NCBI GenBank assembly: GCA_022451065.1
Contig: JAKUOU010000019.1
Coordinates: 4,203-68,202 of the forward strand
Source of the DNA: Pedosphaera sp.
GTDB lineage: Bacteria; Verrucomicrobiota; Verrucomicrobiia; Limisphaerales; UBA1096
Direction: 5' to 3'
DNA: 64,000 nt
Positions 2,613 to 59,128 of this stretch are shown piece after piece. A model generated the notes under the pieces. That model ran no database searches. It was not told where the DNA came from and saw only the letters and a program-made list of their open reading frames with translations. The translations under genes were made by a program, and so were the position numbers. Each line of letters starts with the position of its first letter. The stretch's first letter is position 1.

Positions 2613-2622
2613 CTTGGCCAAG
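2613..2622. repeat. iterated palindrome copy (CGCTTGGCCAAGCG family), 10-bp core
   Basis: CTTGGCCAAG in the Rrf2/DUF1592 spacer. Its TTG is the ORF-track start at 2614. Confidence 0.9.
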
Positions 2623-4554
2623 TACAGTTGGGTGACCGGCTTATCGGTTAACAGTGGTATCAGATCGCTGCTTCTCGCTGCAGCGGCTTGGCTTTGTTTA
2701 TCCAATGGCGTACCCGCCGTGGAACATCCGGGATCAGCCCTTATCGAGCATTACTGCTTCGATTGCCACGATTCGGATACGCAGAAGGGGGAGGTGAATC
2801 TAGAGGCGGCGCTGGGGGCCAAGCCGCTGGTCAAGAATATCGATTTGTGGAGAACGGTCATCGCGCGGGTCGAGAACAGCGATATGCCGCCCAAGAAAAA
2901 ACCGCAACCCAAGCCGGAGGAGAAAAGGCGGTTGCTGAATTGGCTCGACTCGGAAATTAACCACTTTGACTACAGCCAGGTTGACAATCCTGGTTATGAG
3001 CCGGTTCGTCGACTGACGCATATCGAGTTCAGCAACACGCTGCGCGACCTGCTGGGTTTGGACCTGAATTTGGTTGCTGATTTCCCGATCGATCTTAGTG
3101 GAACAAGCGGGTTCGAGAACAGCGCGAACACCCTCTTTCTGCAGCCAATTTTGATGGAACGCTATCTTAGCGCGGTTGACAAGGCGGTTGAAGCGGCGGT
3201 GCCGCTGGATAGCAAACCGAGCGCGGACTCGCCCGTTTTTGTCGCTTGGCCAAGCGGGAAGATTTCTGAAAGAGAGGCAGCGCGGAAAATTATCGACCGC
3301 TTTATGCTTCGTGCGTTTCGGCGGCCACCGACTGAAGATGAGGCGAAAGAACTTCACGGGGTTTATGCTCGTTCGCGAAAGGCGGGTGAAAGCTTTGAGA
3401 TGGCAATCCGCCGAGCACTTGGGGCCGCCTTGGTTTCACCCGCGTTTCTGCTGAAGTCGGAAATTGTCCAGAACACAGATGAGTCGTATCAGGTCAGCGA
3501 CTACGAACTGGCCTGTCGGCTGTCATACTATCTTTGGGCGAGTATGCCCGATGACGAACTGTTCCAACTCGCCGCCGAGAAGCGCTTGGCCAAGCCGGGG
3601 GTGCTCGCGGAGCAGGTCACCCGCATGCTTGCCGATCCCAAGGCGGGAACTCTGGGTAGCGTATTTGCAGCGCAGTGGCTTGGCTTTGACGCGTTGGGAG
3701 TGCGCGTGCGGCTAGATCCCATTGACAATCCTTGGTGTACCGACACGTTGATGGCAGCGATGAAAAAGGAGTCGGCGATGGTTTTTACAGCACTTGTTCG
3801 GGAGAATCGTCCGCTGAAAAACCTAATCGATTCGAAGAATACTTTTGTGAACGAGGAGTTAGCCAAGTTTTACAAATTGAAAGGCGTTAAAGGGACGGAG
3901 ATGCGTCGGGTGTCGCACACGGACAAACGGCGCTACGGTCTCTTTGGCCAAGCATCGGTATTGGCGGTGACCTCATCGCCACATCGTACGAGTCCGATTC
4001 GCCGTGGGGAGTGGATTTTGAGTTCGCTACTCGGCACGCCGCCGCCGCCGCCGCCGCCCGATGTCGGTGAACTGGACGAGGAAATTGAGGAAAACCGCAA
4101 ACTCACTTTCCGCCAAAAACTTGAGATGCACAGCAAGGATTCACGCTGCAACTCCTGCCATCGTGAGATGGATCCGCTTGGTTTTTCTTTGGAAAACTAC
4201 GATTGGTTTGGTCGGTGGCGAACCAAGAGCCGCGGCCGCACGATTGATGCCAAGGGCAAACTGCCGAGTGGCACAGAATTCGAGGGACCGGTTGGTTTAC
4301 GCGAGGTGATCCTTGCTGAGAAGTTGGACGACTTGGCTCGTCAGGTGATCCGTAAAATGCTTTCCTACGGGCTTGGCAGGCAACTCGAGTATTACGATGA
4401 GCCTGCAGTACGTAAAATCCTCGCGACGTTCAAAAAAGACGGTTACCGGATGCAAACACTGGTGCGTGAGGTGGTGAAAAGTTACCCATTTCAGTTCCGC
4501 AAAAACCGGGTGGAACCGGACAACGAATCGAAGGAAGTAGTGAAAAATGGCTAA
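2614..4554 (+). CDS. DUF1592/DUF1588/DUF1595-type planctomycete-specific (PSD) protein with CxxCH motifs
   Basis: 646-aa ORF. N-terminal signal, CFDCHDSDTQKGEVNLE and CNSCHREMDPLGF motifs. Sits directly upstream of a DUF1552 gene, the usual pairing. Start uncertain: TTG 2614 lies inside a palindrome copy and GTG 2632 is an alternative. Confidence 0.8.
   Translation: MAKYSWVTGLSVNSGIRSLLLAAAAWLCLSNGVPAVEHPGSALIEHYCFDCHDSDTQKGEVNLEAALGAKPLVKNIDLWRTVIARVENSDMPPKKKPQPKPEEKRRLLNWLDSEINHFDYSQVDNPGYEPVRRLTHIEFSNTLRDLLGLDLNLVADFPIDLSGTSGFENSANTLFLQPILMERYLSAVDKAVEAAVPLDSKPSADSPVFVAWPSGKISEREAARKIIDRFMLRAFRRPPTEDEAKELHGVYARSRKAGESFEMAIRRALGAALVSPAFLLKSEIVQNTDESYQVSDYELACRLSYYLWASMPDDELFQLAAEKRLAKPGVLAEQVTRMLADPKAGTLGSVFAAQWLGFDALGVRVRLDPIDNPWCTDTLMAAMKKESAMVFTALVRENRPLKNLIDSKNTFVNEELAKFYKLKGVKGTEMRRVSHTDKRRYGLFGQASVLAVTSSPHRTSPIRRGEWILSSLLGTPPPPPPPDVGELDEEIEENRKLTFRQKLEMHSKDSRCNSCHREMDPLGFSLENYDWFGRWRTKSRGRTIDAKGKLPSGTEFEGPVGLREVILAEKLDDLARQVIRKMLSYGLGRQLEYYDEPAVRKILATFKKDGYRMQTLVREVVKSYPFQFRKNRVEPDNESKEVVKNG
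3243..3256. repeat. iterated palindrome copy, 14 bp, inside CDS
   Basis: CGCTTGGCCAAGCG read as V-A-W-P-S-G. Confidence 0.9.
3584..3595. repeat. iterated palindrome copy, 12 bp, inside CDS
   Basis: GCTTGGCCAAGC read as R-L-A-K-P, a different frame from the copy 340 bp upstream in the same gene. Confidence 0.9.
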
Positions 4555-5905: not shown

Positions 5906-5917
5906 TTCGTTTTTCAC

Positions 5918-9649: not shown

Positions 9650-9664
9650 CGCTTGGCCAGGCGC
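9650..9664. repeat. iterated palindrome copy, degenerate
   Basis: CGCTTGGCCAGGCGC, one A-to-G change in the core. Intergenic between glnD and the ECF sigma gene. Confidence 0.8.
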
Positions 9665-9677
9665 TATTTCCTTCACT

Positions 9678-9706
9678 CGTAACCTTGCCGCTTGGCCAAG
9701 CGTAAC
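9678..9706 (+). promoter_or_regulatory. candidate ECF-type promoter (GTAAC-N17-CGTAAC) upstream of the ECF sigma gene
   Basis: cGTAACc at 9678-9684 and CGTAAC at 9701-9706 resemble the AAC-N16/17-CGT architecture of ECF promoters. The spacer is occupied by a palindrome copy. The predicted leader is very short, so the call is weak. Confidence 0.3.
9689..9702. repeat. iterated palindrome copy, 14 bp, intergenic
   Basis: CGCTTGGCCAAGCG 20 nt upstream of the sigma-factor ATG. Second copy in the same 112-bp spacer. Confidence 0.9.
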
Positions 9707-10379: not shown

Positions 10380-10871
10380 ATGAACCAACCCGAGTTTGAG
10401 AACCTGTTGCAAACGGTGCACACGCGTGACTTAACCGATGCCGAGTTGGCCAAGCTGGAGCATTGGCTGGCAGCGAACCCTGACGAGCAGGACGCGTGGG
10501 CAGCACTGGACCGTCTGCTGGTCGCGCTGCCTGATGCCCCGGTGGCGACCAATTTCACCGCTCGCGTGCTGGACAAAGTCCGCCGAACCGAGGCCACCCG
10601 CCAGGCGCTTGGCCAAGCGTGGTGGCGGAAGCTCCTCGCCCCGCAATTTCGTCCCATCCAAATCGCTGCCGCAGCGGCGCTCGCGATGGTCATCGGTGGC
10701 GTCGGCTACCAGTCGCACCTCACCCTGAACCGGGCGGAGATGGCTGCAAGCCTGCATGAGGTGGCAGCCATCGCCGAGATGGTCCCCGGGTTGTTGAGTG
10801 ACTTCGAGGCCATCGAGGCCATCCAACAGGCCGACCCGATCGACGAGGAACTCTGGGCCGCCCTTAAGTAA
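10380..10871 (+). CDS. putative anti-sigma factor (single-pass membrane protein)
   Basis: Immediately downstream of the ECF sigma gene. One TM segment (IQIAAAAALAMVIGGVGY). No strong family motif, so the call rests on context. Confidence 0.55.
   Translation: MNQPEFENLLQTVHTRDLTDAELAKLEHWLAANPDEQDAWAALDRLLVALPDAPVATNFTARVLDKVRRTEATRQALGQAWWRKLLAPQFRPIQIAAAAALAMVIGGVGYQSHLTLNRAEMAASLHEVAAIAEMVPGLLSDFEAIEAIQQADPIDEELWAALK
10606..10619. repeat. iterated palindrome copy, 14 bp, inside CDS
   Basis: Read as A-L-G-Q-A in the anti-sigma gene. Confidence 0.9.
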
Positions 10872-13412: not shown

Positions 13413-13424
13413 CGCTTGGCCAGG
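13412..13424. repeat. iterated palindrome copy, degenerate, between convergent stop codons
   Basis: GCGCTTGGCCAGG begins at the G of the MBL-hydrolase TAG (13410-13412). The ftsK stop is at 13428-13430. Confidence 0.8.
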
Positions 13425-13427
13425 TAG

Positions 13428-17815: not shown

Positions 17816-18534
17816 TCGAAATCGATCAATTAACCAAACAATTCGGCGATTTAAGGGCTGTCGCTGATATCAGCCTGACCGTGCCAGCAGGGGAGTTTTT
17901 TGTCATTCTCGGCCCCAACGCCGCAGGGAAAACCACTACCATCAAGGTCATGGCTGGACTGATGAAACCGACGAGCGGCTCGGTGCGGATTTGTGGATTC
18001 GACATCAGTGCCAGCCCAATCGAGGCGCGCCGCCGCATGGCTTATGTGCCGGACTTTCCCTTCCTCTACGACAAGCTCACGCCGACTGAGTTTTTCCAGT
18101 TCACCGGCAAGCTGTTCGGGATGGAGGATGGAGCGATGCAGGCCGAAGCCGAGCGCCTTACCGGGAGGTTTAACCTCGGCGAATTCCTAGCTAAGCCGAT
18201 CGAGGACCTTTCGCATGGGACCAAACAGCGCGTGGCTATCGTCTCCGCGCTGATGCATTCGCCGGAGGTCGTCGTGTTCGACGAGCCGATGGTCGGGCTC
18301 GACCCGCATCACACCCGCGTTCTCAAGGACATTCTGCGCGAACAGGCCGCCGCCGGCGTGACGGTGTTTGTCTCCACTCATCAACTCAGCGTTGCCGAGG
18401 AGATGGCAGACCGCATTGGCATCATGCATCAGGGCCGACTCGTCGCTGTCGGGTCGCACGAGGAACTGCAGGCAGCGAACCGGGATAACACGCTCGAGTC
18501 GATTTTCCTGGCGCTGACCACTGACAACGCATGA
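17812..18534 (+). CDS. ABC transporter ATP-binding protein
   Basis: Walker A GPNAAGKTT, signature LSHGTKQR, Walker B VVVFDEP. Confidence 0.9.
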   Translation: MIEIDQLTKQFGDLRAVADISLTVPAGEFFVILGPNAAGKTTTIKVMAGLMKPTSGSVRICGFDISASPIEARRRMAYVPDFPFLYDKLTPTEFFQFTGKLFGMEDGAMQAEAERLTGRFNLGEFLAKPIEDLSHGTKQRVAIVSALMHSPEVVVFDEPMVGLDPHHTRVLKDILREQAAAGVTVFVSTHQLSVAEEMADRIGIMHQGRLVAVGSHEELQAANRDNTLESIFLALTTDNA

Positions 18535-20258
18535 ACGGCGCGAAGCCCATTTCGCATTGGCGACTGTTGGCCAAGGTCAACCGTATGCAAAACTGGCGGC
18601 GGCTCAAGTCGGCGGTAGTGCGTTCACGGCTGCATGCATCCCTCATGGGCCTGTTCGTCGTGGGCTATGCCTGGATGGCGTACTGGCTGTTTCACAAGGG
18701 ACTGCAATTTACTTCGGGCTTTCCCGGTCTGGGGCCGGTGCTGATCGAGCGGATGATGTTCCTGCTGTTCGCATTCCTTTTTTTGCTGCTGCTGCTCAGC
18801 AACGTCATCATCAATTTCACCAACCTGTTTCGAAACAAGGAAACCCAGTTCCTGTTGTCGTTGCCGGTGCCGCGCCAGGTCGTTTACCGGTGGAAGGTGT
18901 TCGAATCCGGCATCCTGGCGTCGTGGGCGTTTTTGTTCCTGATCGCGCCACTGGTGGCCGCGTACGGCGCAATCTACAATGCGCCGTGGCATTTTTACCT
19001 TGTGACGCCGTTGTTTGTGGCGTTGTTCGTCGTGCTGCCGGCCATCCTCGGTAGTTGGGCGGCGCTGGGACTGGCACGCTGGGTGGATCGGCTGGCGTTT
19101 CAGGTGGCCGTCGTGCTGGCGGTGATCGTGCTGATTGTCGTTGCCAGCTCGTGGTTGCAGCCGGAGACGGTGACTGACGAGATGCTTGAGACACGCGTAC
19201 TCGATGTCGTCGACCGGCTGCTGGCGCGCACGCGATTTTCATTGTTCCCGTTTCTTCCAAGCTACTGGGTGTCGAGCGGGATCACCCAGTGGGTTGAGGG
19301 CGCGTTAATGGGTACTTTTTTCTTCGGCTTGGTTTTGCTGAGCCACACGCTTTTTTTCGGCTATCTCGCCTCGACCCGCACGGGCGGTATTTTTTACGGC
19401 GCAGTCTCGGCGGTGAACAGCCGGGGAGGAGGAACAGCGGTCGGCTGGAAATTTTGGAAACACAAACCGGCGCTTGGCCAGACGGCGTTCGCTCCCAGGC
19501 TACTCGACCGCCTGGCCAAGCTAATGTGGTGGGGCCGCGGCGACACGCGGGCGCTGATCGTGAAGGACATCCGCACCTTTTGGCGGGACGCAACACAGTG
19601 GGGTCAATCGCTTATTCTGCTTGGCCTGCTGATCGCGTACATCGTGAACCTACGACACTTCTCTCACCGGCTGACCAGCGACTTTTGGATCGACCTCACC
19701 TCGTATCTGAACCTCGGTGCATGCGCACTGAACCTTGCCACGTTGACGACGCGGTTTGTGTTCCCTCAAATCTCGCTCGAGGGCAAACGCATCTGGATCA
19801 TAGGCATGGCACCGCTCGGGATGCGCCGCACGCTCATGGCCAAGTTCCTATTCTCCACCGCCGTGTCGATGGGCGTGACGATGGCACTTGTGGGGGCGTC
19901 GTGTGCGATGCTTTCAATTCCACCTGGGCGCGTTTTATACTTCACACTGACCATCGGCGTGATGGCGTTCACCCTCAACGCGCTGGCGGTGGGCCTCGGT
20001 GCGGTGTACCCGAACTTCCGCGAGGATAATCCGAGCAAGATCGTCAGCGGTTTTGGCGGCACGCTCTGCCTTGTGCTGAGTTTCATCTACATCGTCGGCA
20101 TGCTTAGCCTGATGGCGGCAACGTCGCGCTGGGCATTCGGCGGCAGCTCGGCAGTGGAATTCTGGCTCGGGTGGGCGGTGTTTCTTGGTGGCTCGTTCCT
20201 GCTCGGCTGGCTGCCGCTACGGGCCGGTATCCGCAAAATGGCCAGTGTGGAAATCTAG
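18531..20258 (+). CDS. large polytopic permease (putative ABC exporter type)
   Basis: 575 aa with many TM helices. ATGA overlap with the ATPase gene. Confidence 0.65.
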   Translation: MNGAKPISHWRLLAKVNRMQNWRRLKSAVVRSRLHASLMGLFVVGYAWMAYWLFHKGLQFTSGFPGLGPVLIERMMFLLFAFLFLLLLLSNVIINFTNLFRNKETQFLLSLPVPRQVVYRWKVFESGILASWAFLFLIAPLVAAYGAIYNAPWHFYLVTPLFVALFVVLPAILGSWAALGLARWVDRLAFQVAVVLAVIVLIVVASSWLQPETVTDEMLETRVLDVVDRLLARTRFSLFPFLPSYWVSSGITQWVEGALMGTFFFGLVLLSHTLFFGYLASTRTGGIFYGAVSAVNSRGGGTAVGWKFWKHKPALGQTAFAPRLLDRLAKLMWWGRGDTRALIVKDIRTFWRDATQWGQSLILLGLLIAYIVNLRHFSHRLTSDFWIDLTSYLNLGACALNLATLTTRFVFPQISLEGKRIWIIGMAPLGMRRTLMAKFLFSTAVSMGVTMALVGASCAMLSIPPGRVLYFTLTIGVMAFTLNALAVGLGAVYPNFREDNPSKIVSGFGGTLCLVLSFIYIVGMLSLMAATSRWAFGGSSAVEFWLGWAVFLGGSFLLGWLPLRAGIRKMASVEI

Positions 20259-20259
20259 C

Positions 20260-20273
20260 CGCTTGGCCAAGCG
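20260..20273. repeat. iterated palindrome copy, 14 bp, between convergent stop codons
   Basis: TAG(20256-20258)-c-CGCTTGGCCAAGCG-cggg-TCA(20278-20280, recJ stop). Confidence 0.9.
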
Positions 20274-20277
20274 CGGG

Positions 20278-21996
20278 TCAGTCTTTGGCAGGACGCCAAT
20301 CGATGAGTTTTAGCTGCACGGAGCGACGGCCGTTGAAGTCGTTGATCTGCGGAGCGACGGCGACGTCGAAGGTATCTTTCGGCTCGTCTTCGGGCTTGAG
20401 GTTCCACGCAACGACTTCGCAGGCATCGTGATTATCGGTCACCCAAAACTTGGCGTGTTGTTTGTCGCGCCCCATGCGGTAAATGGGACTCGATAGGGTG
20501 AGTTCGGGAACGAGGAGTTGGATCTCCGGATTGCCTTGGCCAATCGGCTCGAGTTGGCTCATTTCCTCGATGTGCATGAGTGTCAACTCTGAGAGGTCGG
20601 TCCCAGCGTCGAGCTTGAGCGGTGGCTGGAACATTTCAGGCGTGATGGTTTTTTTGGCGATCTCATTAATGCGTTCACGGAAGGCCTCGAGCCGGCCGGG
20701 CTTGACGGAGACGCCGGCGGCCATGGCGTGTCCGCCGTGGTCATTCAGAAGGTCGTCGCAGCTGCGCATGGCCTCGGCAAGGTCGAAGCCCTCGATGCTT
20801 CGGGCGGAGCCTTTCCAGCCGTCACCGTCGCTGGCGAGGATGAAGGTGGGCCTGTAGAATTCGCGCATGACGCGGGAGGCGACGATGCCGATGACGCCGA
20901 GATGCCACTCCATGTTGCCCTCGACGATGACAAAATCCTCCCCGGGGTCGAACCGCTGGCGGACGCTCTCCACGGCCTGTGTGGAGATGTCGCGCTCGAT
21001 CTCCCGGCGTTCGCGGTTGTAGTTGTCGAGGGTTTCGGCGGCTTTATCGGCCTCGTAGCGGTCCTTGGCGATCAGGAGGTTCAGCGCTGCATCCGGGTTG
21101 TCCATCCGGCCGGCGGCGTTGAGTCGTGGGCCAAGGTGGAACCCGACATTGAACACGGTGACCGGCTTGGAGACATTGGCTACTTTCTTGAGGGCGATGA
21201 GCCCAGGTCGGGTGGTTTCGCCGAGCTGCTCGAGGCCGGAGTGGACTAGTTTTCTATTCTCACCGGTCAACGGGACGAGGTCGGCCACGGTGCCAAGCGC
21301 GACGAGGTCGATGTATTGCTTGAGGTCGAGGTCGCGCTCCTTTTGCAGCCCCTCCTGGCGGCCGCGCTTGACGAGCGCGTGCGCGAGCTTGAAGGCGAGG
21401 CCAACGGAGCATAGCTCCTGGAAGTTCGGGTAATCGTCGCTGAGCTGGGGGTTGACCATGGCGAACGGCTCGGGCGGCGGTGTGCTGACCTGGTGATGGT
21501 CCAGCACCAGGACATCGATCTTTTTGTCATTAAGAAACTCGATGGCCTTGACAGCGGTGGAGCCGCAATCGACGGCGAGCACGATGTCGGCCTTGAACTG
21601 CTCGAGGCATTTCTCGAGGGACACCTCGCTCAGGCCGTAGCCGTCGTCGAAGCGGCCGGGGAGGTGCGGCTCTACCGCCCAGCCGAGCTCGGTCAACACC
21701 TCCACGAGCAACGCCGTGGAGCTGACGCCGTCCACGTCGTAGTCGCCATATATCAACAACCGCTCGTTGTTTTCTCGTGCCTTCCAGAGCCGCTCGATGG
21801 CGGCATCCATGTTTGGAATCAGGTACGGATCGGCCAACAACTTGAGCCGTGGGTTCAGGAACTCGCTGACTTCGGCCTTACTGGTAACGCCCCGGTTGAC
21901 GAGGCATTGGGCCATGAGCGGCGACAGCGGCAGCTCGCGAATGAGTTGGCCTGTTAAGAGCGGTTGTGAGGGTGCGAGGCTCCAGCGATATTTCAC
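20278..21996 (-). CDS. recJ: single-stranded-DNA-specific exonuclease RecJ
   Basis: DHH motifs (IYGDYDVDGVSS, DCGS, VLDHH) and DHHA1 (GGHAMAAG). GTG start. Confidence 0.9.
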   Translation of the reverse strand: MKYRWSLAPSQPLLTGQLIRELPLSPLMAQCLVNRGVTSKAEVSEFLNPRLKLLADPYLIPNMDAAIERLWKARENNERLLIYGDYDVDGVSSTALLVEVLTELGWAVEPHLPGRFDDGYGLSEVSLEKCLEQFKADIVLAVDCGSTAVKAIEFLNDKKIDVLVLDHHQVSTPPPEPFAMVNPQLSDDYPNFQELCSVGLAFKLAHALVKRGRQEGLQKERDLDLKQYIDLVALGTVADLVPLTGENRKLVHSGLEQLGETTRPGLIALKKVANVSKPVTVFNVGFHLGPRLNAAGRMDNPDAALNLLIAKDRYEADKAAETLDNYNRERREIERDISTQAVESVRQRFDPGEDFVIVEGNMEWHLGVIGIVASRVMREFYRPTFILASDGDGWKGSARSIEGFDLAEAMRSCDDLLNDHGGHAMAAGVSVKPGRLEAFRERINEIAKKTITPEMFQPPLKLDAGTDLSELTLMHIEEMSQLEPIGQGNPEIQLLVPELTLSSPIYRMGRDKQHAKFWVTDNHDACEVVAWNLKPEDEPKDTFDVAVAPQINDFNGRRSVQLKLIDWRPAKD

Positions 21997-23122: not shown

Positions 23123-23138
23123 GCGCTTGGCCAAGCGC
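23123..23138. repeat. iterated palindrome copy, 16 bp, intergenic
   Basis: GCGCTTGGCCAAGCGC, 9 nt upstream of the terC-family start codon on the minus strand and downstream of the secDF stop. Confidence 0.9.
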
Positions 23139-31369: not shown

Positions 31370-32050
31370 ATGCCGGGTGTTTCCATTGTAATTGTCGCTG
31401 CTGGTAGCGGCAGCCGGATGGGGCGGGGCGACAAGATGTTTCTCGACATCGCTGGTCTGCCGCTGCTCGGGCACACTTGGCGGCGGTTTGATCTGTTATC
31501 CGAGGCGGACGAGATCATTTTGGTTACCCGAGATGACGTGCGGCCTGCATTGGAGGATTTGGCCAAGCGCATCAACGCGCAAAAGCCGTGGCAACTCGTC
31601 GCCGGCGGAGTGGAGCGGCAGGACTCCGTCTGGAACGGTGTCAATGCCACCACCGCCGAATCGGAGATTATCGCGATACAGGATGGCGCGCGACCGTGCA
31701 CGCCGTTGGCCGCTATTCAATTGGCCTTGGTTACGGCTCGTGAAATGGGTGCGGCCGTGCTTGCCAGACGCATGGCTGACACGCTCAAGCGCGGCGATGG
31801 CGAGGGACAAATCGTAGGGACGGTGGATCGGGAAAATCTTTGGACCGTGCAGACACCGCAGGTGTTTCGGCGGGAGATCATTCTCGCTGCCTTGGCCAAG
31901 GTGCGAGACGAGGGTTTGTCAATCACCGACGACACCGCCGCCTGCGAAGCGCTTGGCCAATCGGTGAAACTGGTCGAGTGCGACCAGCCAAATCCCAAGG
32001 CGACCACACCGGCGGATCTGCCGTACATTGAGTCGCTTCTGGCGGAGTGA
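31370..32050 (+). CDS. ispD: 2-C-methyl-D-erythritol 4-phosphate cytidylyltransferase
   Basis: VIVAAGSGSRMG..DK.F N-terminus, GGVERQDSV, IQDGARP. Confidence 0.9.
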   Translation: MPGVSIVIVAAGSGSRMGRGDKMFLDIAGLPLLGHTWRRFDLLSEADEIILVTRDDVRPALEDLAKRINAQKPWQLVAGGVERQDSVWNGVNATTAESEIIAIQDGARPCTPLAAIQLALVTAREMGAAVLARRMADTLKRGDGEGQIVGTVDRENLWTVQTPQVFRREIILAALAKVRDEGLSITDDTAACEALGQSVKLVECDQPNPKATTPADLPYIESLLAE

Positions 32051-34042
32051 TCAACTCCCCGCGCCGAGCAGCTTGATCAGCGCCGCGTCCTTCTCCGGGC
32101 CGGATTGGAAGTCGAGCGCGCGGATGTAGCGCGGTTTTTCCTCCTCTGCGGTCTTTTTATTGAGTAGGATTTTCACCAAGAGGTCGGGAGTCTTGCTGGA
32201 GCGCGAGCGCCAGACGATGTCGCGGCCGGCCGGCGTGTCCCAGTTGCTGCCGACTGCTTCGAGCCAGGCACCAAAAAACTTGTCCTGCTGGCGGTCCAGT
32301 GCGAGGCCAAGCGCCTCGAGGTACCAGCGATCTGCGCCGTCGTGCTGCTGGGCGAGCTTGGCCCAGAGCGCCGGGGTGGCCGGCGAGTCGTTGTGCCGCA
32401 GCGCAATCGCGCATTCGCGGCGGACAGCCGGATCCTTGTCGCTGACCAGTTGTTTTACTAGCGGAATCACATCGAAACCGCGCTCGCGGGCGATGCGTAG
32501 GCCGGTGATGCGAATGTCCGGGTTGGCATCCTTGAGTGCCGCGCCGATGTACTTTTTCTCCAAACCCTTGATGCGGGCGAGCAGGTGCAGCGCCCGGGCG
32601 CGCAGGCGTTGGTCGTCGCCATTCCAAAGTTTGCCCAGCGTGCTCTCGGCCTTTGCGCCGACTTTGTTCAATTGCTGCCAGCCGATGTAGCGCGCAGCCA
32701 TGTTCGGCGAGGATAACATGCTGAGCGCGGTGCGTTTTTTCGGAATCGTGTATTTCGTATTCTTGCCTTTGGGTGTGAGACGGTAGATGCGACCTGTCAT
32801 CTGGCCTGGCTTGTGGTCGGTCATGTGGTGGCCGCCGACGTGGCCATCGTGCCAGTCGGCAACGAGCACCGATCCGTCCGGCGCGGTGCAGACATCCGAC
32901 GGGCGATACCACGGATCCTTGCTTTGCAGCATGTTGACAATCTTGCCCTTGTAGCCGGCGCCGCTCTTGGTGACCGGATATGCACGAACCACGCGTGGTC
33001 CGGGGTCGCAGTGCATCATTTGGCCTTGAAAAGTTTTTGGCAACAAACCGCCTTCGTAGATGGCAATGCCAGTCGGTGAACCCTGTCCGGTTTGCAGGAG
33101 GTTCGGGATCACGCCTGGATCGTTCTGGTGCCAGTGCATGGACGGCACGTCCTTCTCTTGGTTGGTGCGCTTGGTGCGCCAGCCGCGTCCGGTCAATTCG
33201 TCGGTGTAACCGTAGTTTCCGAATTCCATCACGAAGTTGATGCGGACACCTCGGTTGCCATCGTCGTCGTTGTCGGACTGCCAGATCGTACCGAATGAGT
33301 CCACTGTGACTTCGAAGTTGTTGCGGAAGTTAAACCCAAGCGTTTCCACCTCGCTGCCGTCGAGGTTGCAGCGGAACACCAGTCCCTGCCGATACGGTTT
33401 GCCGCGGCCGTTCACCTCGTTGCCGGCCTTGTCGACGATGAACTTTTTGCCATCGGCAGTCTTCAACTGCCCGCCGTTGTTGCCGACGTTGAAATAGAGC
33501 TTGCCGTCCGGGCCAAACACAAACGCGTGCGCGCCGTGGTCGTGATCCACTCCACCGATGCCGTTGAACAACACCGTCGGCGGACCATCGGCCTTGTCAT
33601 CCCCGTTCTCGTCGGTGAACAACAACACCTTGGGCGAGCAGGAAATGATCACCTTGGTGCCGAGCACAGCGATGCCTAGCGCAGCATTCACGTCGTTGCC
33701 CTGGTAAAACGTCTTGGCCAAGTCGGCTTTCCCGTCGCCATCCGTGTCCTCTAGGATTCGGATGCGGTCGCCTTCCGGCTGTATCTTGCCCCACGGCTTG
33801 AACAGTCGGTAGTTGACGCCCTCGGTTACCCACACACGGCCCTCGGAATCGATGTCCATGTTGGCGGGATTCAGCAGCATCGGCTCGGAGGCGAACAGTG
33901 TGGCCTGCAGCTCGGGGTGGGGAATCAGCTGCTTGGCCTGCTCGGCGGCAGCGGCTGGGCCGTGGCGTTGCGCGGTTAGGTTCGCTGCCAGCAACAGGGC
34001 GGCGGCAACGGTTAGGGTTGATTTGATCCAGTACGATTTCAT
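32051..34042 (-). CDS. PVC-type membrane-bound-dehydrogenase-domain protein with HEAT repeats (no CxxCH)
   Basis: ORF 32051..34549 trimmed to ATG 34042 (signal peptide MKSYWIKSTLTVAAALLLAANLTAQ). FASEPMLLNPANMDIDSEGRVWVTEG...ILEDTDGDGKADL beta-propeller region, C-terminal HEAT-like repeats. Confidence 0.7.
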   Translation of the reverse strand: MKSYWIKSTLTVAAALLLAANLTAQRHGPAAAAEQAKQLIPHPELQATLFASEPMLLNPANMDIDSEGRVWVTEGVNYRLFKPWGKIQPEGDRIRILEDTDGDGKADLAKTFYQGNDVNAALGIAVLGTKVIISCSPKVLLFTDENGDDKADGPPTVLFNGIGGVDHDHGAHAFVFGPDGKLYFNVGNNGGQLKTADGKKFIVDKAGNEVNGRGKPYRQGLVFRCNLDGSEVETLGFNFRNNFEVTVDSFGTIWQSDNDDDGNRGVRINFVMEFGNYGYTDELTGRGWRTKRTNQEKDVPSMHWHQNDPGVIPNLLQTGQGSPTGIAIYEGGLLPKTFQGQMMHCDPGPRVVRAYPVTKSGAGYKGKIVNMLQSKDPWYRPSDVCTAPDGSVLVADWHDGHVGGHHMTDHKPGQMTGRIYRLTPKGKNTKYTIPKKRTALSMLSSPNMAARYIGWQQLNKVGAKAESTLGKLWNGDDQRLRARALHLLARIKGLEKKYIGAALKDANPDIRITGLRIARERGFDVIPLVKQLVSDKDPAVRRECAIALRHNDSPATPALWAKLAQQHDGADRWYLEALGLALDRQQDKFFGAWLEAVGSNWDTPAGRDIVWRSRSSKTPDLLVKILLNKKTAEEEKPRYIRALDFQSGPEKDAALIKLLGAGS

Positions 34043-34126
34043 TGTCAAAAGTTCGTTAAATGGCTTGAGGTGCAAATGAAGCCACAAATCCACCCGGCGT
34101 TCAACCCATCGCTCACCGCTCGACTC

Positions 34127-34140: not shown

Positions 34141-34159
34141 CGGTACCCTGCCAGCGCCG

Positions 34160-35491
34160 ATGTCGCCCGCTGTACAAACTGCTGACGCTCCCTTTTCCCA
34201 TTTGAAGGATCTCGACTACTCGGTGGTGCAGCAGTGCATGCACTGTGGCATGTGCCTGCCGAGCTGTCCTACCTACGATGAGACAAAGCTTGAGCGGAAC
34301 AGCCCTCGCGGTCGTATCGCCCTGATGCGCTCCATCGCCGATGGCGAACTCGAGGCCACCCGCGCGTTCGCCGAGGAAATGTACTACTGTCTCGGCTGCC
34401 TTGCCTGCATGACAGCTTGCCCGGCTGGCGTGAACTACGCCGAGCTGTTCGAGCATGCCCGTGCAGAGGTCGAGGAAAAGAAGGTCATCGACTCCATCTG
34501 GCGCAGGTTGATTCGCCGTGTCACGCTCAAGTGGCTGTTCACCAAGCATGCCCGCTTGAAGCTGCTCGGTCGGTTGATTCGCCTGTACAGTTCACTTGGC
34601 CTCAAGTCGCTTGTTCGTGGCAGCCGCGTACTTAAGTTGATGCCTAGGCGCCTGGGTGAACTCGAGGCCATGACGCCGGAGATACAGCCCAGGTTCTCCG
34701 ATGAGCTCATTCAGTTGGAGACAACGGCTAGGGGTGAGAAACGTTATCGCGTGGCCATGCTCACTGGCTGCGCGCAGGATCTTATTTTCAGCGATGTTAA
34801 TCGCGACACCGTCGAGGTATTGGCCGAGAACGGTTGCGACGTTTACACGCCACGCAACCAAGGCTGCTGCGGATCGCTGCACGCACATAACGGCGAATGG
34901 ACCATGGCCCAGCAACAGGCGCGCATGATGATCGACCTGTTCCCGCCGAGTGAATTTGACGCCATCATCAGCAACGCGGCCGGTTGCGGTTCGCACCTCA
35001 AGCATTACCACAGCTTGCTGAAAGAGGACGAAAAGTACGCCGACTTGGCCAAACAGTGGGACGCCAAGTTGAAAGATGTTCATGAGTGGCTGGTGGAGAC
35101 CGGCGTGCGCGAGCCAAGCGGCACCGCGCCTGGTCGAGCGCAAAAGGTCACCTACCACGAAGCCTGCCACCTTTGCCACGGCCAAAAGATCACTGCGCAG
35201 CCGAGGAAGATTCTTAAGGCGATTCCGGGACTAGAACTGACCGAGTTGTCGGAGAGCACCTGGTGCTGCGGCAGCGCCGGCATCTACAACATCACCCAGC
35301 CGGAGATGGCCAACAAGCTACTCAAGCGCAAGATCGAGCACATACGCTCAACCGGCGCGGAAATGGTGGCGATGGGTAATCCCGGTTGCTCGTTACACAT
35401 CACCAATGGCTTGGCCAAGTGCCAGTCAGAAGTCCGCGTGGTCCATCCCATTACCCTCCTAGCCGAGGCCTACGGAAGAGAGGATAAGTAG
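34160..35491 (+). CDS. (Fe-S)-binding protein, GlcF / heterodisulfide-reductase-like (two 4Fe-4S motifs plus CCG domains)
   Basis: ORF 34070..35491 with ATG 34160 preferred. CMHCGMCLPSCP and CLGCLACMTACP ferredoxin motifs, CCGS and WCCGSAG CCG motifs. Confidence 0.8.
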   Translation: MSPAVQTADAPFSHLKDLDYSVVQQCMHCGMCLPSCPTYDETKLERNSPRGRIALMRSIADGELEATRAFAEEMYYCLGCLACMTACPAGVNYAELFEHARAEVEEKKVIDSIWRRLIRRVTLKWLFTKHARLKLLGRLIRLYSSLGLKSLVRGSRVLKLMPRRLGELEAMTPEIQPRFSDELIQLETTARGEKRYRVAMLTGCAQDLIFSDVNRDTVEVLAENGCDVYTPRNQGCCGSLHAHNGEWTMAQQQARMMIDLFPPSEFDAIISNAAGCGSHLKHYHSLLKEDEKYADLAKQWDAKLKDVHEWLVETGVREPSGTAPGRAQKVTYHEACHLCHGQKITAQPRKILKAIPGLELTELSESTWCCGSAGIYNITQPEMANKLLKRKIEHIRSTGAEMVAMGNPGCSLHITNGLAKCQSEVRVVHPITLLAEAYGREDK

Positions 35492-41872: not shown

Positions 41873-41898
41873 GCTTGGTCAAGCGCTTGGCCAAGCGC
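41873..41898. repeat. tandem 1.5-2 copies of the iterated palindrome
   Basis: GCTTGGTCAAGC (one mismatch) overlaps GCGCTTGGCCAAGCGC (41883-41898). It ends 6 nt upstream of the GT2 ATG. Confidence 0.9.
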
Positions 41899-48244: not shown

Positions 48245-48254
48245 CCACCGCCAC

Positions 48255-48270
48255 CTGGCCAAGCGCTTGG
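48255..48270. repeat. circularly permuted palindrome copy between convergent stop codons
   Basis: CTGGCCAAGCGCTTGG contains the palindrome CCAAGCGCTTGG. It fills the gap between the mog TAG (48242-48244) and the amidohydrolase stop (48271-48273). Confidence 0.85.
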
Positions 48271-50757: not shown

Positions 50758-50781
50758 GGGTTCTGCGGTGATCCTAGCTCG

Positions 50782-51481: not shown

Positions 51482-52486
51482 ATGAACTCACGAATCCTAT
51501 TGTCAGTGGTGGCAGGGCTTTTGATGCTTGGCCTAACGCACAGCTCCGCCCAGGAAGAGCCTTTCACCGTCAAGAAAAACGGCGACAACTATCGCGTCGA
51601 GATTGATGGTAAGCTGTTCACCGAATACATCCCTACTGGATACAACAAGCCGGTGCTTTACCCGGTCATCGGTCCGCACGGCGTCAGCATGACGCGCAAT
51701 TACCCGTTCAAGGAGGTCGAGGGCGAAGCCAAGGATCACGTGCATCATGCGTCGTTGTGGTTCACGCACGGCGAAGTCAATGGCATCAGCTTTTGGCACA
51801 ACGGCAAAAACACGGGAAAAATCATCCCGGCCGAGCTGGTCCGTGCCGAGGGCGGTCGCCGCGGCTCGATCGTCTCGAAAAACAACTGGGTTGGTCCGGA
51901 CGACAAGGTTATCTGCACCGACCGGACATCGATCAGTTTCTATAAAGCGCTCGGTGGCACATTCGTGTCGTACAGCGTGACCGTCTTTGCATCGGAAGGG
52001 GACGTGACCTTTGGCGACACCAAGGAGGGCAGCATGGGTATCCGCACGCATCCGAACCTGCGCCTGACCAACGGCAAGGGTGTCACCACTGCCAACGGCC
52101 ACGCGCTCAACAGTGCCGGGCACAAGGACAAGGAACTCTGGGGCAAGCGCGCCAAGTGGGTCGATTACTGGGGCGAGATCGACAACCACACGGTCGGCGT
52201 TGCCATATTCGATCACCCGGACAATCTGCGCCACCCGACCTGGTGGCACGCCCGGGACTACGGTCTGGTTGCCGCCAACCCGTTCGGCATTCACAACTTC
52301 GAGGGCAAGAAAAAGGGCGTGGGCGACTTCAAGCTGAAGAAGGGTGAACAGCAGCAGTTCCTCTACGGCATCCTTTTCCACGAGGGCGACGCCCAGGCCG
52401 CTGACATTGCCGGCTCATACGCCAAATGGGTCGATGCCGTTGCCGCCTACAAGGTCAGGGCAGCGGAGCAAACTGGGAACAACTAG
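51482..52486 (+). CDS. PmoA-family / DUF6807-like secreted protein
   Basis: Signal peptide. KPVLYPVIGPHGVSMTRNYP and DHVHHASLWFTHGEVNG blocks as I recall them for this family. Confidence 0.6.
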   Translation: MNSRILLSVVAGLLMLGLTHSSAQEEPFTVKKNGDNYRVEIDGKLFTEYIPTGYNKPVLYPVIGPHGVSMTRNYPFKEVEGEAKDHVHHASLWFTHGEVNGISFWHNGKNTGKIIPAELVRAEGGRRGSIVSKNNWVGPDDKVICTDRTSISFYKALGGTFVSYSVTVFASEGDVTFGDTKEGSMGIRTHPNLRLTNGKGVTTANGHALNSAGHKDKELWGKRAKWVDYWGEIDNHTVGVAIFDHPDNLRHPTWWHARDYGLVAANPFGIHNFEGKKKGVGDFKLKKGEQQQFLYGILFHEGDAQAADIAGSYAKWVDAVAAYKVRAAEQTGNN

Positions 52487-52497
52487 CTTGGCCAAGC
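52486..52497. repeat. iterated palindrome copy, 12 bp, between convergent stop codons
   Basis: Starts on the G of the TAG at 52484-52486. Followed by gcgggc and TCA (52504-52506, cysE stop). The right flank GCGCGGG is the same as in the copy at 20260. Confidence 0.9.
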
Positions 52498-52503
52498 GCG
52501 GGC

Positions 52504-58349: not shown

Positions 58350-59128
58350 CTGCCGAAAAGGCGGACGAAATTTTCTTCCACGCGCCTGGCCAAGTCGTCG
58401 GGCGCTTGGCCAAGCGCCTCGGCGGCGGCCTCGTTCACGGCGGCGATGTTGGCTGGGTGGTTGACCGCTTGGCCAAGCGGATGAGTGACGCGATCTTCAG
58501 GCAGTCCTTGGTCGGGGGCGTCGGTCTCGATGAGTAGTCGGTCGGTCGGCACTCGGCGGAAGGTGTCGCGCTGGCGCGTTTTGCGTTCATGCGCGAAGGC
58601 ACCGGGAAAGCTGAAGTAGGCGCCGATTGAGGCCAACGGCTCGATCATCTCCGCCGGGCCACCGTAGCTGTGAAGTAGAAAACCGCGCCTAGGCAATGGG
58701 CTGTTGCGGAGGAGATCGTGGAGGCGCCCCCAAGTCTTGAGACAATGAAGGCTTGCGGGGAGATTACGCTCGGCAGCCAGGCTGAGTTGGGCGGTGAAAA
58801 CTTTCTCCTGTTCGTCGTAACTCAGGCCGGGCTTCCAGCGGTCGAGGCCGATTTCACCGACAACACTTGGGCAAGCGTCGAGATGTTGCTCGAGTTTGGC
58901 CAGCCAACTTGGCGTGCGCTCGTGGACGAACCAAGGGTGCAGGCCGAAGCTGGGCATCACACAGTCGTGGCGACTGGCCAGGTCGGCGACCGTGGGCCAG
59001 TCGCTCTCGCGGGTGCCGTTGACGACCATTTTGGACAGGCCAACAGCGGTACAATCGGAGATCAGTTCGTCCTGTTGATTGCCGAATCGGGCATCCTGCA
59101 AATGGTTGTGCGCATCGAACAGCCGCAT
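58346..59128 (-). CDS. tatD: TatD family metal-dependent hydrolase
   Basis: MRLFDAHNHL..., GEIGLD, LHSY, ETDAPD. Confidence 0.85.
   Translation of the reverse strand: MRLFDAHNHLQDARFGNQQDELISDCTAVGLSKMVVNGTRESDWPTVADLASRHDCVMPSFGLHPWFVHERTPSWLAKLEQHLDACPSVVGEIGLDRWKPGLSYDEQEKVFTAQLSLAAERNLPASLHCLKTWGRLHDLLRNSPLPRRGFLLHSYGGPAEMIEPLASIGAYFSFPGAFAHERKTRQRDTFRRVPTDRLLIETDAPDQGLPEDRVTHPLGQAVNHPANIAAVNEAAAEALGQAPDDLARRVEENFVRLFGS
58401..58418. repeat. iterated palindrome copy, 18 bp, inside CDS
   Basis: GGCGCTTGGCCAAGCGCC, the longest perfect copy. Lies in the 3' end of tatD (A-L-G-Q-A on the minus strand). Confidence 0.9.
58464..58479. repeat. iterated palindrome copy, 16 bp, inside CDS
   Basis: CCGCTTGGCCAAGCGG, 46 bp from the previous copy. 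A third degenerate copy (CCTGGCCAAGTC) lies at about 58385-58396. Confidence 0.9.

Follow-up and report, generated by a model that had tools for sequence, protein, structure and literature searches.

In the window analysed here, by which we mean the whole 64-kb stretch of DNA, the gene of an ABC_tran_2 protein (18531-20258, + strand) and recJ (20278-21996, - strand) converge on a 19-nt spacer (20259-20277) that is filled by an exact copy of the 14-letter palindrome CGCTTGGCCAAGCG at 20260..20273. This word is also the consensus of the family of copies described below, the invariant core of which is TTGGCCAA, and the junction at 20256-20280 reads TAG-C-CGCTTGGCCAAGCG-CGGG-TCA, exactly as claimed in an earlier sequence-only reading of this DNA. 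The gene layout is taken from gene calls that we made on the window, with which Pfam matches and independent gene calls on orthologous contigs were consistent. These separate calls reproduced the 11 convergent gene pairs of the earlier account and its five spacers of at least 15 nt (13413-13427, 20259-20277, 48245-48270, 50758-50781 and 52487-52503), as well as its observation that four of the five contain a copy. Of these four copies, two are exact and two decayed. The second exact copy, aGCTTGGCCAAGCG (52485..52498; an exact 10-mer that matches 13 of the 14 positions), overlaps the TAG stop codon of a DUF6807 gene (51506-52486, +) in the 17-nt spacer (52487-52503) that separates it from a hexapeptide-transferase gene (52504-53403, -). 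The right flank CGCGGG, described as common to these two copies, does recur in a few others, but the family consensus does not include it. The decayed copies are CGCTTGGCCAgGta (13413..13426), in the 15-nt spacer between a Lactamase_B gene (12693-13412, +) and ftsK (13428-16088, -), where the degenerate word reads CGCTTGGCCAgG, and a decayed copy with a partial second copy (CAcCTGGCCAAGCGCTTGG, 48252..48270) in the 26-nt spacer between a MoCF_biosynth gene (47762-48244, +) and an amidohydrolase gene (48271-49185, -), where it reads CcTGGCCAAGCGCTTGG. Exact copies in the convergent spacers of the window thus number two in 123 bp, coding sequence having 0.33 per kb. The fifth spacer (50758..50781), between a sigma-54 activator gene and a DUF4149 gene, is free of the word, and a copy was found at this junction in no ortholog examined. 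In some relatives the junction has small GC-rich inverted repeats of another kind.

Comparison with orthologous junctions shows how these copies come and go. The copy at 20260..20273 stays exact in the ortholog L160 (83% identity) and has decayed to CcTGGCCAAG in L266 and L267 and to CcTaGCCAAG in L268, while the copy at 52485..52498 is exact in ten of 18 orthologous loci and reads CTTGaCCAAG in two. In more distant loci the latter junction carries CCCGGCCGGG or CCCGGGCtGCCCGGG in place of the copy, other palindromes, and such replacement is better explained by a structural requirement than by one for a specific sequence. Both degenerate copies of the window derive from better ones, as relatives show: the entire 14-nt spacer at the 13413 junction is CGCTTGGCaAAGCG in L266 and L267 (L266 reading TAG-CGCTTGGCaAAGCG-CTA), and at the 48245 junction relatives with 91% identity have an exact CTTGGCCAAGCGCTTGG. 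Whether or not an orthologous spacer contains the copy, its length is the same, which indicates that copies arise by substitution and not by insertion, and the decay of junction copies in some lineages implies that selection on any single copy is weak.

The word is far from being confined to spacers. In the window, CTTGGCCAAG has 26 exact copies against 0.09 expected (10-mer count), and there are 42 matches to the 14-mer with at most two mismatches against 0.7 expected. Every sampled stretch of more than 15 marine Verrucomicrobiota MAGs contains the palindrome about once per 1-2.5 kb, with 3-12 copies per 8 kb in about 105 loci. In these comparisons the pooled set (L121-L239) was collected via close copy pairs, which were then removed, and the second set (L240-L269), being made up of window orthologs, has lineages that are not independent. 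Between 77 and 79% of the copies are intragenic, intergenic DNA being generally 2-4 times richer in them. The word is imposed on genes at the DNA level through the choice of codons and even of amino acids: coding copies begin almost only at codon position 1 or 3, giving Leu-Gly-Gln or Leu-Ala-Lys, and Leu-Ala-Lys is written TTG-GCC-AAG in 359 of 519 cases (31 expected) and Leu-Gly-Gln CTT-GGC-CAA in 203 of 282 (7 expected). The two peptides are themselves 4.4-4.8 times over-represented, with reversed controls near 1.

Upon this genome-wide layer lies a second one, a several-fold concentration in the ~20 nt that directly follow stop codons. This zone has 4.6-6.1 copies per kb, compared with 0.9-2.0 elsewhere between genes and 0.5-0.8 within them, and the motif centre peaks 0-29 nt past stops (3.7 and 2.8 per kb, over a background of ~0.5). 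A locus set found without reference to the motif gave 6.0, 1.67 and 0.51 per kb for stop-proximal, other intergenic and coding DNA, respectively. Long convergent spacers have 4.2 copies per kb near the stops and 0.31 in the middle, and in short convergent spacers the density rises to ~20 per kb. The placement is sequence-specific as well as non-random, as had been supposed from the window, since GC-rich inverted repeats of other sequence show no excess at distances of up to 20 nt from stops (0.84 per kb, versus 1.34 in coding DNA). The comparison of convergent, tandem and divergent spacers that the sequence-only reading had proposed, when run on spacers of 12-39 nt in the window and 106 independent Verrucomicrobial loci, found an exact copy in 11 of 24, 2 of 41 and none of 8, respectively (convergent versus tandem per stop codon, with ascertainment pairs removed, Fisher p = 5e-4). 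In spacers of at least 80 nt, the share of stops with a copy is 11-14% for convergent and 11-15% for tandem genes, and tandem spacers of 80-159 nt have a copy in 21 of 50 cases, mostly 2-12 nt past the upstream stop. What sets the short convergent spacers apart is that none of their bases is more than 20 nt from a stop and that they have no need of a ribosome-binding site. The earlier interpretation therefore holds in part: the placement itself is confirmed, and the proposed link to transcriptional convergence as such gives way to an enrichment that tracks stop codons generally.

Where convergent genes leave no spacer, copies had been said to sit in the nearby 3' coding ends, for which the data are marginal. 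The pooled 3' coding ends of such junctions have 0.89 copies per kb versus 0.49 in all coding DNA (p = 0.05), the positional profile shows no increase over the last 300 nt of genes, and exact copies within 150 nt occur at just one of the six such window junctions, that of RecG/TatD. There, an exact copy (58405..58414; 14-mer 58403-58416) lies in the 3' part of tatD (58346-59128, -), with a second exact 14-mer at 58466-58479, 63 nt from the first, and neither is well conserved in orthologs. The ispD gene (31418-32050, +) has an exact copy at 31891..31900, and a one-mismatch 14-mer is located at 31950-31963.

Taken over all copies, the element behaves as a word of double-stranded DNA rather than as a mobile element or an RNA hairpin, because its copies are imposed through codons, conservation is highest at its centre, the distances between neighbouring copies are multiples of ~10.5 bp and retention at orthologous positions is about twice that of control words. 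Among single-mismatch variants, the outer positions 1 and 2 account for 148 and 83 cases, and few (6-15 cases) affect the nearly invariant inner half-site TTGG. The fit to the full 14-mer is best among intergenic copies, most of which have palindrome arms of at most 7. Retention at 78-93% identity is 48% for intergenic copies and 55% for coding ones, compared with 19-24% for control 10-mers. In the case of spacing, pairs of exact copies peak at 42, 52 and 63 nt, and pairs of exact and one-mismatch copies, which played no part in locus finding, gave a Rayleigh R of 0.28-0.32 at a period of 10.4-10.5 (p ~2e-6), with R < 0.1 at periods of 10.0 and 11.0 and an n*R^2 of 12.9 against at most 3.4 for control 7-mers. 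The signal comes mainly from pairs with both copies in genes, the 36 pairs involving intergenic DNA showing no clear 10.5 peak, and for this reason a heptad-like protein periodicity (3.5 residues, or 10.5 nt) stays a candidate and may underlie the phasing, although the peptides between paired copies do not have the look of a coiled coil. A protein-mediated role at the DNA level, as had been suggested earlier, is compatible with both the invariant centre and this phasing.

Placing these results among known systems, the word is very probably a new HIP-type (highly iterated) palindrome from outside cyanobacteria, with a real preference for gene ends. HIP1 and the alternate HIPs of cyanobacteria (GCGATCGC; Robinson 1995; Elhai 2015, PMC4390886; Xu 2018, PMC5861425) are likewise short, GC-rich, perfect palindromes with hundreds to thousands of copies per Mb, which occur in coding and more densely in non-coding DNA, are conserved between related genomes above control words and show one-nucleotide deviations mostly at the outer positions. 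The Verrucomicrobiota word differs in belonging to another phylum, in its unrelated and longer sequence with information over 14 bp, in being dominated by two reading frames where HIP1 is enriched in all three, and in the short-range 10.5-bp phasing of neighbouring copies; no cognate methyltransferase was found for it in the window and 860 sampled ORFs, which is a small sample. It differs most plainly in its sharp preference for the first ~20 nt past stops, HIP1 having no positional signal at the level of genes in tests that covered starts and transcription start sites, not stops (Xu et al., PMC5861425). The placement at gene ends is thus a positional clue to what highly iterated palindromes do.

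The reading that we favour, and put forward tentatively, is that the word is a HIP-type recognition site in double-stranded DNA that is kept at gene ends. A sequence-specific and probably dimeric DNA-binding activity would recognise the 14-bp site, and gene-end copies would be preferentially retained since binding marks or insulates the end of the transcription unit, for example if the bound site pauses or blocks an RNA polymerase that has no trailing ribosome; intragenic copies would be read through. Because the word is a palindrome, one copy could serve both of two convergent genes, and in compact genomes such sharing would let short convergent spacers shrink to little beyond the copy. Neither the window nor the 860 sampled ORFs yielded a binding protein, a methyltransferase or a competence gene, although for a methyltransferase this sample is far too small to exclude one.

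A possible, though rather unlikely, alternative is a DNA uptake or 'self'-recognition sequence like the neisserial DUS or the USS of Pasteurellaceae, with a competence or DNA-processing receptor preferring word-bearing DNA; the word would spread by molecular drive, its copies settling where they are cheapest or useful, just behind genes. The DUS of Neisseriaceae and the USS are words of ~10 nt, present about once per kb, with a reading-frame and peptide bias in genes, dialects common to related species and an intergenic concentration at gene ends as inverted repeats. Our word has a similar density of ~1 per kb, a strong frame and peptide bias, an occurrence common to related species and a concentration at gene ends that matches the pattern of DUS and USS, about half of which lie in predicted terminators and whose intergenic copies are often inverted repeats (bioRxiv 10.1101/2025.10.24.684340). 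A role in uptake or in enhancing transformation is now proposed for HIP1, too (bioRxiv 10.64898/2026.06.24.733823). However, the known uptake sequences are asymmetric and form hairpins only as inverted pairs, which are usually real terminators, whereas this word is a perfect palindrome, a single copy of which makes a weak hairpin with no T-tract, and its copies are without convincing terminator hairpins. Neither is the 10.5-bp phasing predicted by uptake, and none of the sampled DNA showed competence genes or a receptor. Competence is not known for this Verrucomicrobial clade.

It is improbable, in our judgement, that the word is a by-product of methylation-linked or otherwise biased repair, as in Elhai's HIP model, with no function at gene ends. 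Near-matches would then be continually converted to the palindrome and would survive best where constraint is lowest. The core includes TGGCCA/GGCC, which are typical type II methyltransferase sites. The decay and reappearance of copies at the same junctions, the generally 2-4 times denser intergenic DNA and deviations that fall mostly at the outermost positions, as in HIP1 (PMC4390886), would all follow from this model. Relaxed constraint alone nevertheless misfits the gradient from 0.31 per kb in mid-spacer to 4.2 near stops and ~20 in short convergent spacers, for the middle of a long convergent spacer needs neither promoter nor ribosome-binding site and yet is poor in copies, and other intergenic DNA has just about twice the coding density. 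The methyltransferase that it calls for was not found in a sample far too small to exclude one, and copies are conserved above control words, which in HIP1 was taken as evidence of selection (Xu et al. 2018, PMC5861425).

Equally hard to sustain is an element acting in RNA, in which a small bidirectional hairpin after the stop would pause RNA polymerase or shield the 3' end from exonucleases after factor-dependent termination. The palindrome does lie directly 3' of stops and is identical on both strands, as in bidirectional intrinsic terminators between convergent stops; relatives have different palindromes at the 52487 junction; spacer copies are often extended by partial repeats of 12-nt period into longer palindromes (-18.3 kcal/mol in L219); and folding would be more stable in the cold (-6.7 kcal/mol at 10 C, a cold-ocean temperature). 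A single copy, however, reaches a folding energy of just -3.5 kcal/mol, where a canonical terminator from this clade reaches -19, lacks the stable stem and flanking A/U tracts of bidirectional terminators and has no T-run, so that the earlier judgement of a poor intrinsic terminator is upheld. Junction RNAs fold no better than their dinucleotide shuffles (z-scores -0.4 to +1.3). In addition, the would-be loop, the central GGCC, is the most conserved part, arms are mostly at most 7 in intergenic copies, T and A tracts are absent, there is no enrichment of other GC-rich hairpins past stops, and the ~78% of copies within genes go unexplained. One-mismatch copies in tandem spacers had two wobble-compatible and five disruptive changes, numbers that do not favour pairing and are too small to decide. 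Other convergent junctions in the clade have canonical A-tract/hairpin/T-tract terminators (L179 3682-3733, L221 914-970), and in L185 degenerate copies beside the stop are followed by one, which shows that the copy is insufficient for termination there. A role as an RNA hairpin is hence poorly supported.

Finally, the likeness to REP/BIME elements of enterobacteria drawn in the sequence-only reading extends to repeated palindromes between convergent genes and at operon ends and, conceptually, to the proposed functions of protecting 3' ends and binding proteins, but REPs are strictly extragenic, imperfect, 20-40 nt long, stable stem-loops that are clustered as BIMEs and linked to RAYTs, whereas the present copies are mostly intragenic and imposed via codons, 14-bp perfect, weakly folding and arisen by substitution. 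The element is neither spacer-specific nor REP/BIME-like, and a mobile extragenic repeat of REP/BIME or MITE type spread by a transposase, for which only the intergenic position of the four window junction copies speaks, is practically untenable, being already contradicted by the in-frame copies in genes and having against it the unchanged spacer lengths, a size of 14 bp with no terminal repeats or target duplications, and the lack of a transposase near copies in the window gene annotation.

The remaining copies of the window lie both in genes and between them. Exact copies occur at 3245..3254 and 3585-3594 (gene 2719-4554), 10608..10617 (gene 10380-10871), 33713..33722 and 34129-34138 (gene 32051-34549) and 35410..35419 (gene 34508-35491), and further coding copies of 10 nt each at 35656, 38118, 39639, 40380, 44081, 47347, 50506, 53968, 54843, 63606 and 63648. 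An exact 10-mer (2613..2622) is found in a tandem spacer 18 nt past the stop of an Rrf2 regulator gene (2133-2594, +), and exact 14-mers in the tandem spacer between secDF (23218-25710, -) and terC (22098-23114, -), at 23124..23137 and 10 nt upstream of the terC start, and between fur (41285-41761, -) and a glycosyltransferase gene (called start 41943, +), at 41884..41897, the latter overlapped by a two-mismatch copy 12 nt upstream (41872-41885). Between glnD (6847-9609, -) and a divergently oriented ECF sigma factor gene (9722-10330, +), the spacer holds a one-mismatch copy (9650-9663) and an exact 14-mer (9689..9702), the latter being conserved in both L135 (73% identity) and L222 (83% identity).

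The sequence between the stop codons of the ABC_tran_2 gene and recJ (20256-20280) reads TAG-C-CGCTTGGCCAAGCG-CGGG-TCA, and this arrangement, picked out by the sequence-only reading, is confirmed and proves to be the tip of a phenomenon that extends through the clade. Our own gene calls also agree with that reading in giving the window 11 convergent gene pairs, five of them with a spacer of at least 15 nt, and in placing copies of the palindrome in four of these five: exact ones in 20259-20277 and in 52487-52503 (DUF6807/hexapeptide-transferase), decayed ones in 13413-13427 (Lactamase_B/ftsK; CGCTTGGCCAgG) and 48245-48270 (MoCF_biosynth/amidohydrolase; CcTGGCCAAGCGCTTGG), and none in 50758-50781. 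The calls were made with a simple caller based on codon statistics, in which stop positions do not depend on start prediction, and they match Pfam hits and independent calls on orthologous contigs. Because orthologous loci carry better copies at the same junctions, the decayed copies of the window descend from better ones: relatives at 91% identity have an exact CTTGGCCAAGCGCTTGG at the 48245 junction, and all 14 nt of the FtsK/lactamase spacer of the orthologous locus L266 are CGCTTGGCaAAGCG. Junction copies decay in some lineages, and the copy at 20259 is exact in the window and in the clade locus L160, CcTGGCCAAG in the orthologs L266 and L267 and CcTaGCCAAG in L268. The copy at 52487 is kept without change in relatives as far as about 83% identity, and two have CTTGaCCAAG; more distant relatives have other GC-rich palindromes (CCCGGCCGGG, CCCGGGCtGCCCGGG) instead (window 52485-52503 compared with the orthologs L242-L245 and L258), with conserved flanks and with changes that are symmetric across both arms. 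These replacements look like conservation of symmetry and not of sequence, and both they and the decay of junction copies count against the main reading that we favor below.

The word is not confined to junctions. The window holds 26 copies of the 10-mer CTTGGCCAAG (406 per Mb) against 0.09 expected, 52 copies of the core TTGGCCAA, and 10 exact copies of the 14-mer CGCTTGGCCAAGCG; if one or two mismatches are allowed, the 14-mer count rises to 42, where 0.7 would be expected. When one genome of each species was scanned for pairs of copies lying 25-55 nt apart, at least 119 stretches were obtained. Among the stretches listed, at least about 105 belong to marine Verrucomicrobiota, represented by more than 15 MAGs (MED711, ARS81, UBA6775, NIOZ-UU28 and SB9160_S9_bin_9 among them), and these carry 3-12 copies per 8 kb. 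An exact look-up of one protein of the window gave no match, whereas the RecJ of the window has 100% identity to a protein of an NCBI MAG labelled Pedosphaera sp. The 14-mer is the consensus of the whole family, and intergenic copies fit it better than coding ones. These properties match the definition of a highly iterated palindrome (HIP) as worked out for the cyanobacterial HIP1 (PMC4390886, PMC5861425). The word is a short, GC-rich, perfect palindrome with the extreme abundance required of a HIP (hundreds to thousands per Mb, with an observed/expected ratio well above 15), and it is dispersed through coding and non-coding DNA, 20 of the 26 window copies and 483 of the 615 pooled copies (77-79% overall) lying inside genes, on which it is imposed at the DNA level. 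It is conserved above control words, orthologs at 78-93% identity retaining 48% of the intergenic and 55% of the coding window copies compared with 19-24% of control 10-mers, in lineages that are not independent of one another. Its one-nucleotide deviations are biased to the outermost positions, single-mismatch variants numbering 148, 83, 26, 46, 6, 8 and 15 at half-site positions 1 to 7, so that most fall at positions 1-2 and the inner TTGG half-site is nearly invariant (6-15). HIP1 proper (GCGATCGC) was rejected as an identification, as the Verrucomicrobiota palindrome is a different and longer word in another phylum. It also differs from HIP1 in that frame 1 is nearly absent (13 of 476 copies). 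We therefore describe a HIP outside the cyanobacteria, with a preference for gene ends and with helical phasing. Full-text literature searches yielded primers and other unrelated occurrences of the word and no account of it as a repeat in genomes.

The word leaves a visible imprint on proteins. Coding copies begin at codon position 1 in 177 cases, at position 3 in 286 and at position 2 in 13, and are read as Leu-Gly-Gln or Leu-Ala-Lys, for which the codons of the motif occur 12-29 times more often than codon usage predicts. In the coding sequence of the window and of the pooled clade loci (L121-L239), both tripeptides are over-represented 4.4-4.8 times, their reversed versions being near 1, and Arg-Leu-Ala-Lys-Arg about 100 times, figures that, like the pooled codon figures, are somewhat inflated because the loci included were found through close pairs of copies. 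The excess of motif codons together with that of the peptides indicates that a DNA word has been imposed on the proteins, and this bears on analyses of codon usage, composition and gene transfer in these MAGs.

To describe where the copies lie we used the window and 106 Verrucomicrobial loci (707 kb) and discarded those pairs of copies that had served to find the loci. Exact copies amounted to 0.50 per kb in coding sequence, 0.93 in divergent spacers, 1.71 in tandem spacers and 2.68 in convergent spacers. In the positional profile the center of the motif peaks sharply 0-29 nt past the stop codon (3.7 and 2.8 per kb), and the last 300 nt of genes show no rise. Intergenic bases up to 20 nt from a facing stop carried 4.6-6.1 copies per kb, those at 21-40 nt 2.4-2.9 and all others 0.9-2.0; a second sample, the window and 30 loci gathered by protein homology and not by the motif (orthologous and hence not independent), yielded 6.0 copies per kb close to stops, with 1.67 in the rest of the intergenic DNA and 0.51 inside genes. 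The sequence-only reading had proposed to test for enrichment at convergent junctions over other spacer orientations, and for short spacers (12-39 nt) such an enrichment was seen in the window and the 106 loci, with exact copies in 11 of 24 convergent (16 of 24 if visibly decayed copies are counted), 2 of 41 tandem and 0 of 8 divergent spacers (convergent against tandem, per stop: Fisher p = 5e-4). The tie that it drew to convergence as such did not survive. In spacers of at least 80 nt a copy lies within 12 nt of the stop in 11-14% of convergent and 11-15% of tandem cases, and 21 of 50 tandem spacers of 80-159 nt hold a copy, mostly 2-12 nt past the upstream stop, so that the element marks gene ends generally. 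Short convergent spacers stand out because every base in them is near a stop and no ribosome-binding site is required. Within spacers of at least 110 nt the first 10 nt were not significantly preferred over the next 40 (6, 4, 3, 0, 3; p = 0.2). Copies in the 3' coding ends at convergent junctions that lack a spacer, also claimed from the sequence, were only marginally in excess (0.89 versus 0.49 per kb, p = 0.05) and occur at one of the six such junctions in the window. Neutral filling of unconstrained DNA was rejected, since long convergent spacers are poor in copies in their middle (0.31 per kb versus 4.2 near stops, and about 20 in short convergent spacers). It is very probable that we are dealing with a HIP-type palindrome whose preference for roughly the first 20 nt past stop codons is real and specific to this sequence. 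An exact 14-mer at 23124-23137, in the secDF-terC spacer, is placed otherwise: it precedes the start codon of terC by 10 nt, which is where a ribosome-binding site would be and not a position behind a stop.

The distances between neighboring copies are multiples of about 10.5 bp. Measured from start to start, exact neighbors favor 42, 52 and 63 nt, with 12 and 21 nt preferred as well, and this persists if homologous pairs are merged, which leaves 137 clusters; exact pairs involving intergenic DNA likewise peak at about 52 and 60-63 nt, and in the window the copies at 58405 and 58468 are 63 nt apart and those at 63606 and 63648 are 42 nt apart. Pairs of one exact and one single-mismatch copy are free of the bias introduced by locus finding, and 161 such pairs with a spacing of 14-200 nt gave a Rayleigh R of 0.28-0.32 at a period of 10.4-10.5 (p ~2e-6), with zero phase and with the maximum at that period, R being below 0.1 at periods of 10.0 and 11.0 and n*R^2 reaching 12.9 versus at most 3.4 for control 7-mers. 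The signal is carried mainly by pairs with both members in genes, the 36 pairs involving intergenic DNA being uninformative. A period of 10.5 matches the helical repeat of DNA and also a protein heptad (3.5 residues), although the intervening peptides do not resemble coiled coils. We take this phasing as support for recognition of double-stranded DNA, with the sites on one face of the helix.

Together, the preference for stops and the phasing point to double-stranded DNA recognition at gene boundaries. Under the reading that we favor, a dimeric DNA-binding activity would recognize the palindrome, and the copies at gene ends would be retained because binding there would mark where a transcription unit ends or insulate that end; a single copy, being palindromic, could serve both genes of a convergent pair, and a ribosome-coupled polymerase would pass the copies inside genes. 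As one statement, a HIP-type palindrome at gene ends together with such an activity is put forward tentatively, as a possibility somewhat short of probable. A bolder version would make the palindrome the site of a new sequence-specific DNA-binding system marking gene ends throughout a streamlined marine genome. With its protein bound, the site would act in both directions to stop RNA polymerase that has no ribosome behind it or to insulate against it, with phased sites bound cooperatively and genic copies tolerated because the translation-coupled polymerase passes them. We consider this version improbable; if true, it would give HIPs their first concrete function. HIPs have been studied in cyanobacteria for 30 years with no agreement on what they do, and here an unrelated, longer palindrome fills the same genomic role in another phylum, in an abundant marine lineage of Verrucomicrobiota. 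The preference for the first 20 nt or so past stops, by which about half of the short convergent spacers are filled, and the 10.4-10.5-bp phasing are both absent from the descriptions of HIP1 in PMC4390886 and PMC5861425, and they yield testable predictions for maps of 3' ends, for the methylome and for DNA-affinity pull-downs.

Uptake or self-recognition of DNA is the first alternative to weigh, with the palindrome as a word that has settled at gene ends in the manner of the DNA uptake sequences (DUS/USS) of Neisseriaceae and Pasteurellaceae. These likewise settle at gene ends (bioRxiv 10.1101/2025.10.24.684340), HIP1 is now discussed as an uptake-type sequence (bioRxiv 10.64898/2026.06.24.733823), and the palindrome shares with them a word of about 10 nt, a density of about 1 per kb, a frame bias in genes and a concentration at gene ends. 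However, DUS/USS are asymmetric, strand-oriented words and the palindrome is perfectly symmetric, and we regard this explanation as unlikely, if worth keeping in mind. Among the genes of the window and 860 sampled ORFs (1-2% of each genome) there was neither a competence gene nor a candidate binding protein. The palindrome might instead have arisen as a by-product of methylation-linked repair and do nothing at gene ends, an origin that we hold to be decidedly unlikely. HIPs are further characterized by a cognate (orphan) DNA methyltransferase for their core; none is encoded by the genes of the window, and a search of the 860 ORFs (about 0.9 Mb, 1-2% of each genome) with methyltransferase motif expressions returned only a PrmC-like NPPY protein and chance hits.

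The placement behind stops would also suit a weak hairpin in the RNA that makes polymerase pause or shields 3' ends, which we judge quite improbable, as the palindrome at gene ends is not convincing as an RNA structure. The 14-mer folds with -3.5 kcal/mol (-6.7 at 10 C) when a canonical terminator from this clade reaches -19, the RNAs of the window junctions are no more stable than their dinucleotide shuffles (z from -0.4 to +1.3), and the would-be loop is the most conserved part of the palindrome. In tandem spacers, 2 changes compatible with G-U wobble in the transcribed strand stood against 5 disruptive ones, counts too small to favor either side. A generic need for hairpins at gene ends was rejected because GC-rich inverted repeats of other sequence show no excess in the 20 nt next to stops, where they number 0.84 per kb versus 1.34 in genes; of the five in that zone, two are decayed copies of the palindrome. 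In spacers, a copy often has partial copies beside it that repeat every 12 nt (gccaagcgCTTGGCCAAGcgcttgg), and these lengthen the palindrome and can form strong hairpins (for example, -18.3 kcal/mol in the clade locus L219); most intergenic copies have arms of at most 7. Partial or overlapping copies of this kind, (CTTGGCCAAGCG)n, occur at 41872-41897 and 48252-48270 in the window, at 4586-4618 in L219, at 4107-4129 in L148, and in L198 and L210, and the array has two centers of symmetry, GG|CC and GC|GC. The view from the sequence that the element is a poor intrinsic terminator holds. An intrinsic terminator has a stable GC-rich stem-loop and a U-tract (preceded by an A-tract if bidirectional), whereas no T or A tracts accompany the copies, and a bidirectional terminator was accordingly rejected. 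Consensus terminators and promoters were no more frequent in the scanned 12-32 kb than in shuffled sequence and were absent from the junctions, and Rfam gave no RNA family anywhere in the window. Classical terminators with an A-tract, a GC hairpin and a T-tract do stand at other convergent junctions of the clade (L179 3682-3733, L221 914-970, L178 3959-4001 and L185 3706-3784), that of L185 downstream of two degenerate copies that abut the stop codon.

A mobile repeat of the REP/BIME type, to which the palindrome had been likened, is practically out of the question: of that likeness the non-random placement at junctions stands, whereas REP/BIME elements are extragenic, imperfect palindromes of 20-40 nt with a stable stem-loop and BIME clusters, and the palindrome is a perfect one of 14 bp, mostly inside genes, whose only clustering is in the partial tandem copies; mobile insertion was rejected because orthologous spacers with and without a copy are equal in length.

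Comparison with L222, a MAG locus 83-87% identical to the window, showed that 4.2 kb of the window (2602-6845; three genes, for a PSD/PSCyt-domain protein, a DUF1552 protein and an amidohydrolase) are absent from positions 3543-3651 of that locus. There the Rrf2 and GlnD genes face each other across a long hairpin of canonical form with a T-run behind it, and no copy of the palindrome was found at the junction. Copies as the borders of this indel were rejected, as it is not bounded by copies on both sides. Some matches to the pair pattern do not belong to the palindrome family: L141, L182 and L164 (rumen Bacteroidales MAGs) and L155 (a 'Haliangium' MAG) matched because CTTGGCCAAG is embedded in a longer repeat unit, such as cccaatCTTGGCCAAGaatggt, with identical flanks, and they may be repeat arrays. 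Viral contigs scanned with the 14-mer gave single chance hits only; with the pair pattern they gave 17 stretches, of which only one, L276 (IMGVR_UViG_3300025936_000016, a contig of 104,655 nt), is rich in the palindrome. It carries 6 copies in 5.4 kb, a host-like density, with a GC content of 0.61 and cgc flanks, and could be a phage or prophage of the Verrucomicrobial clade or misclassified host DNA.
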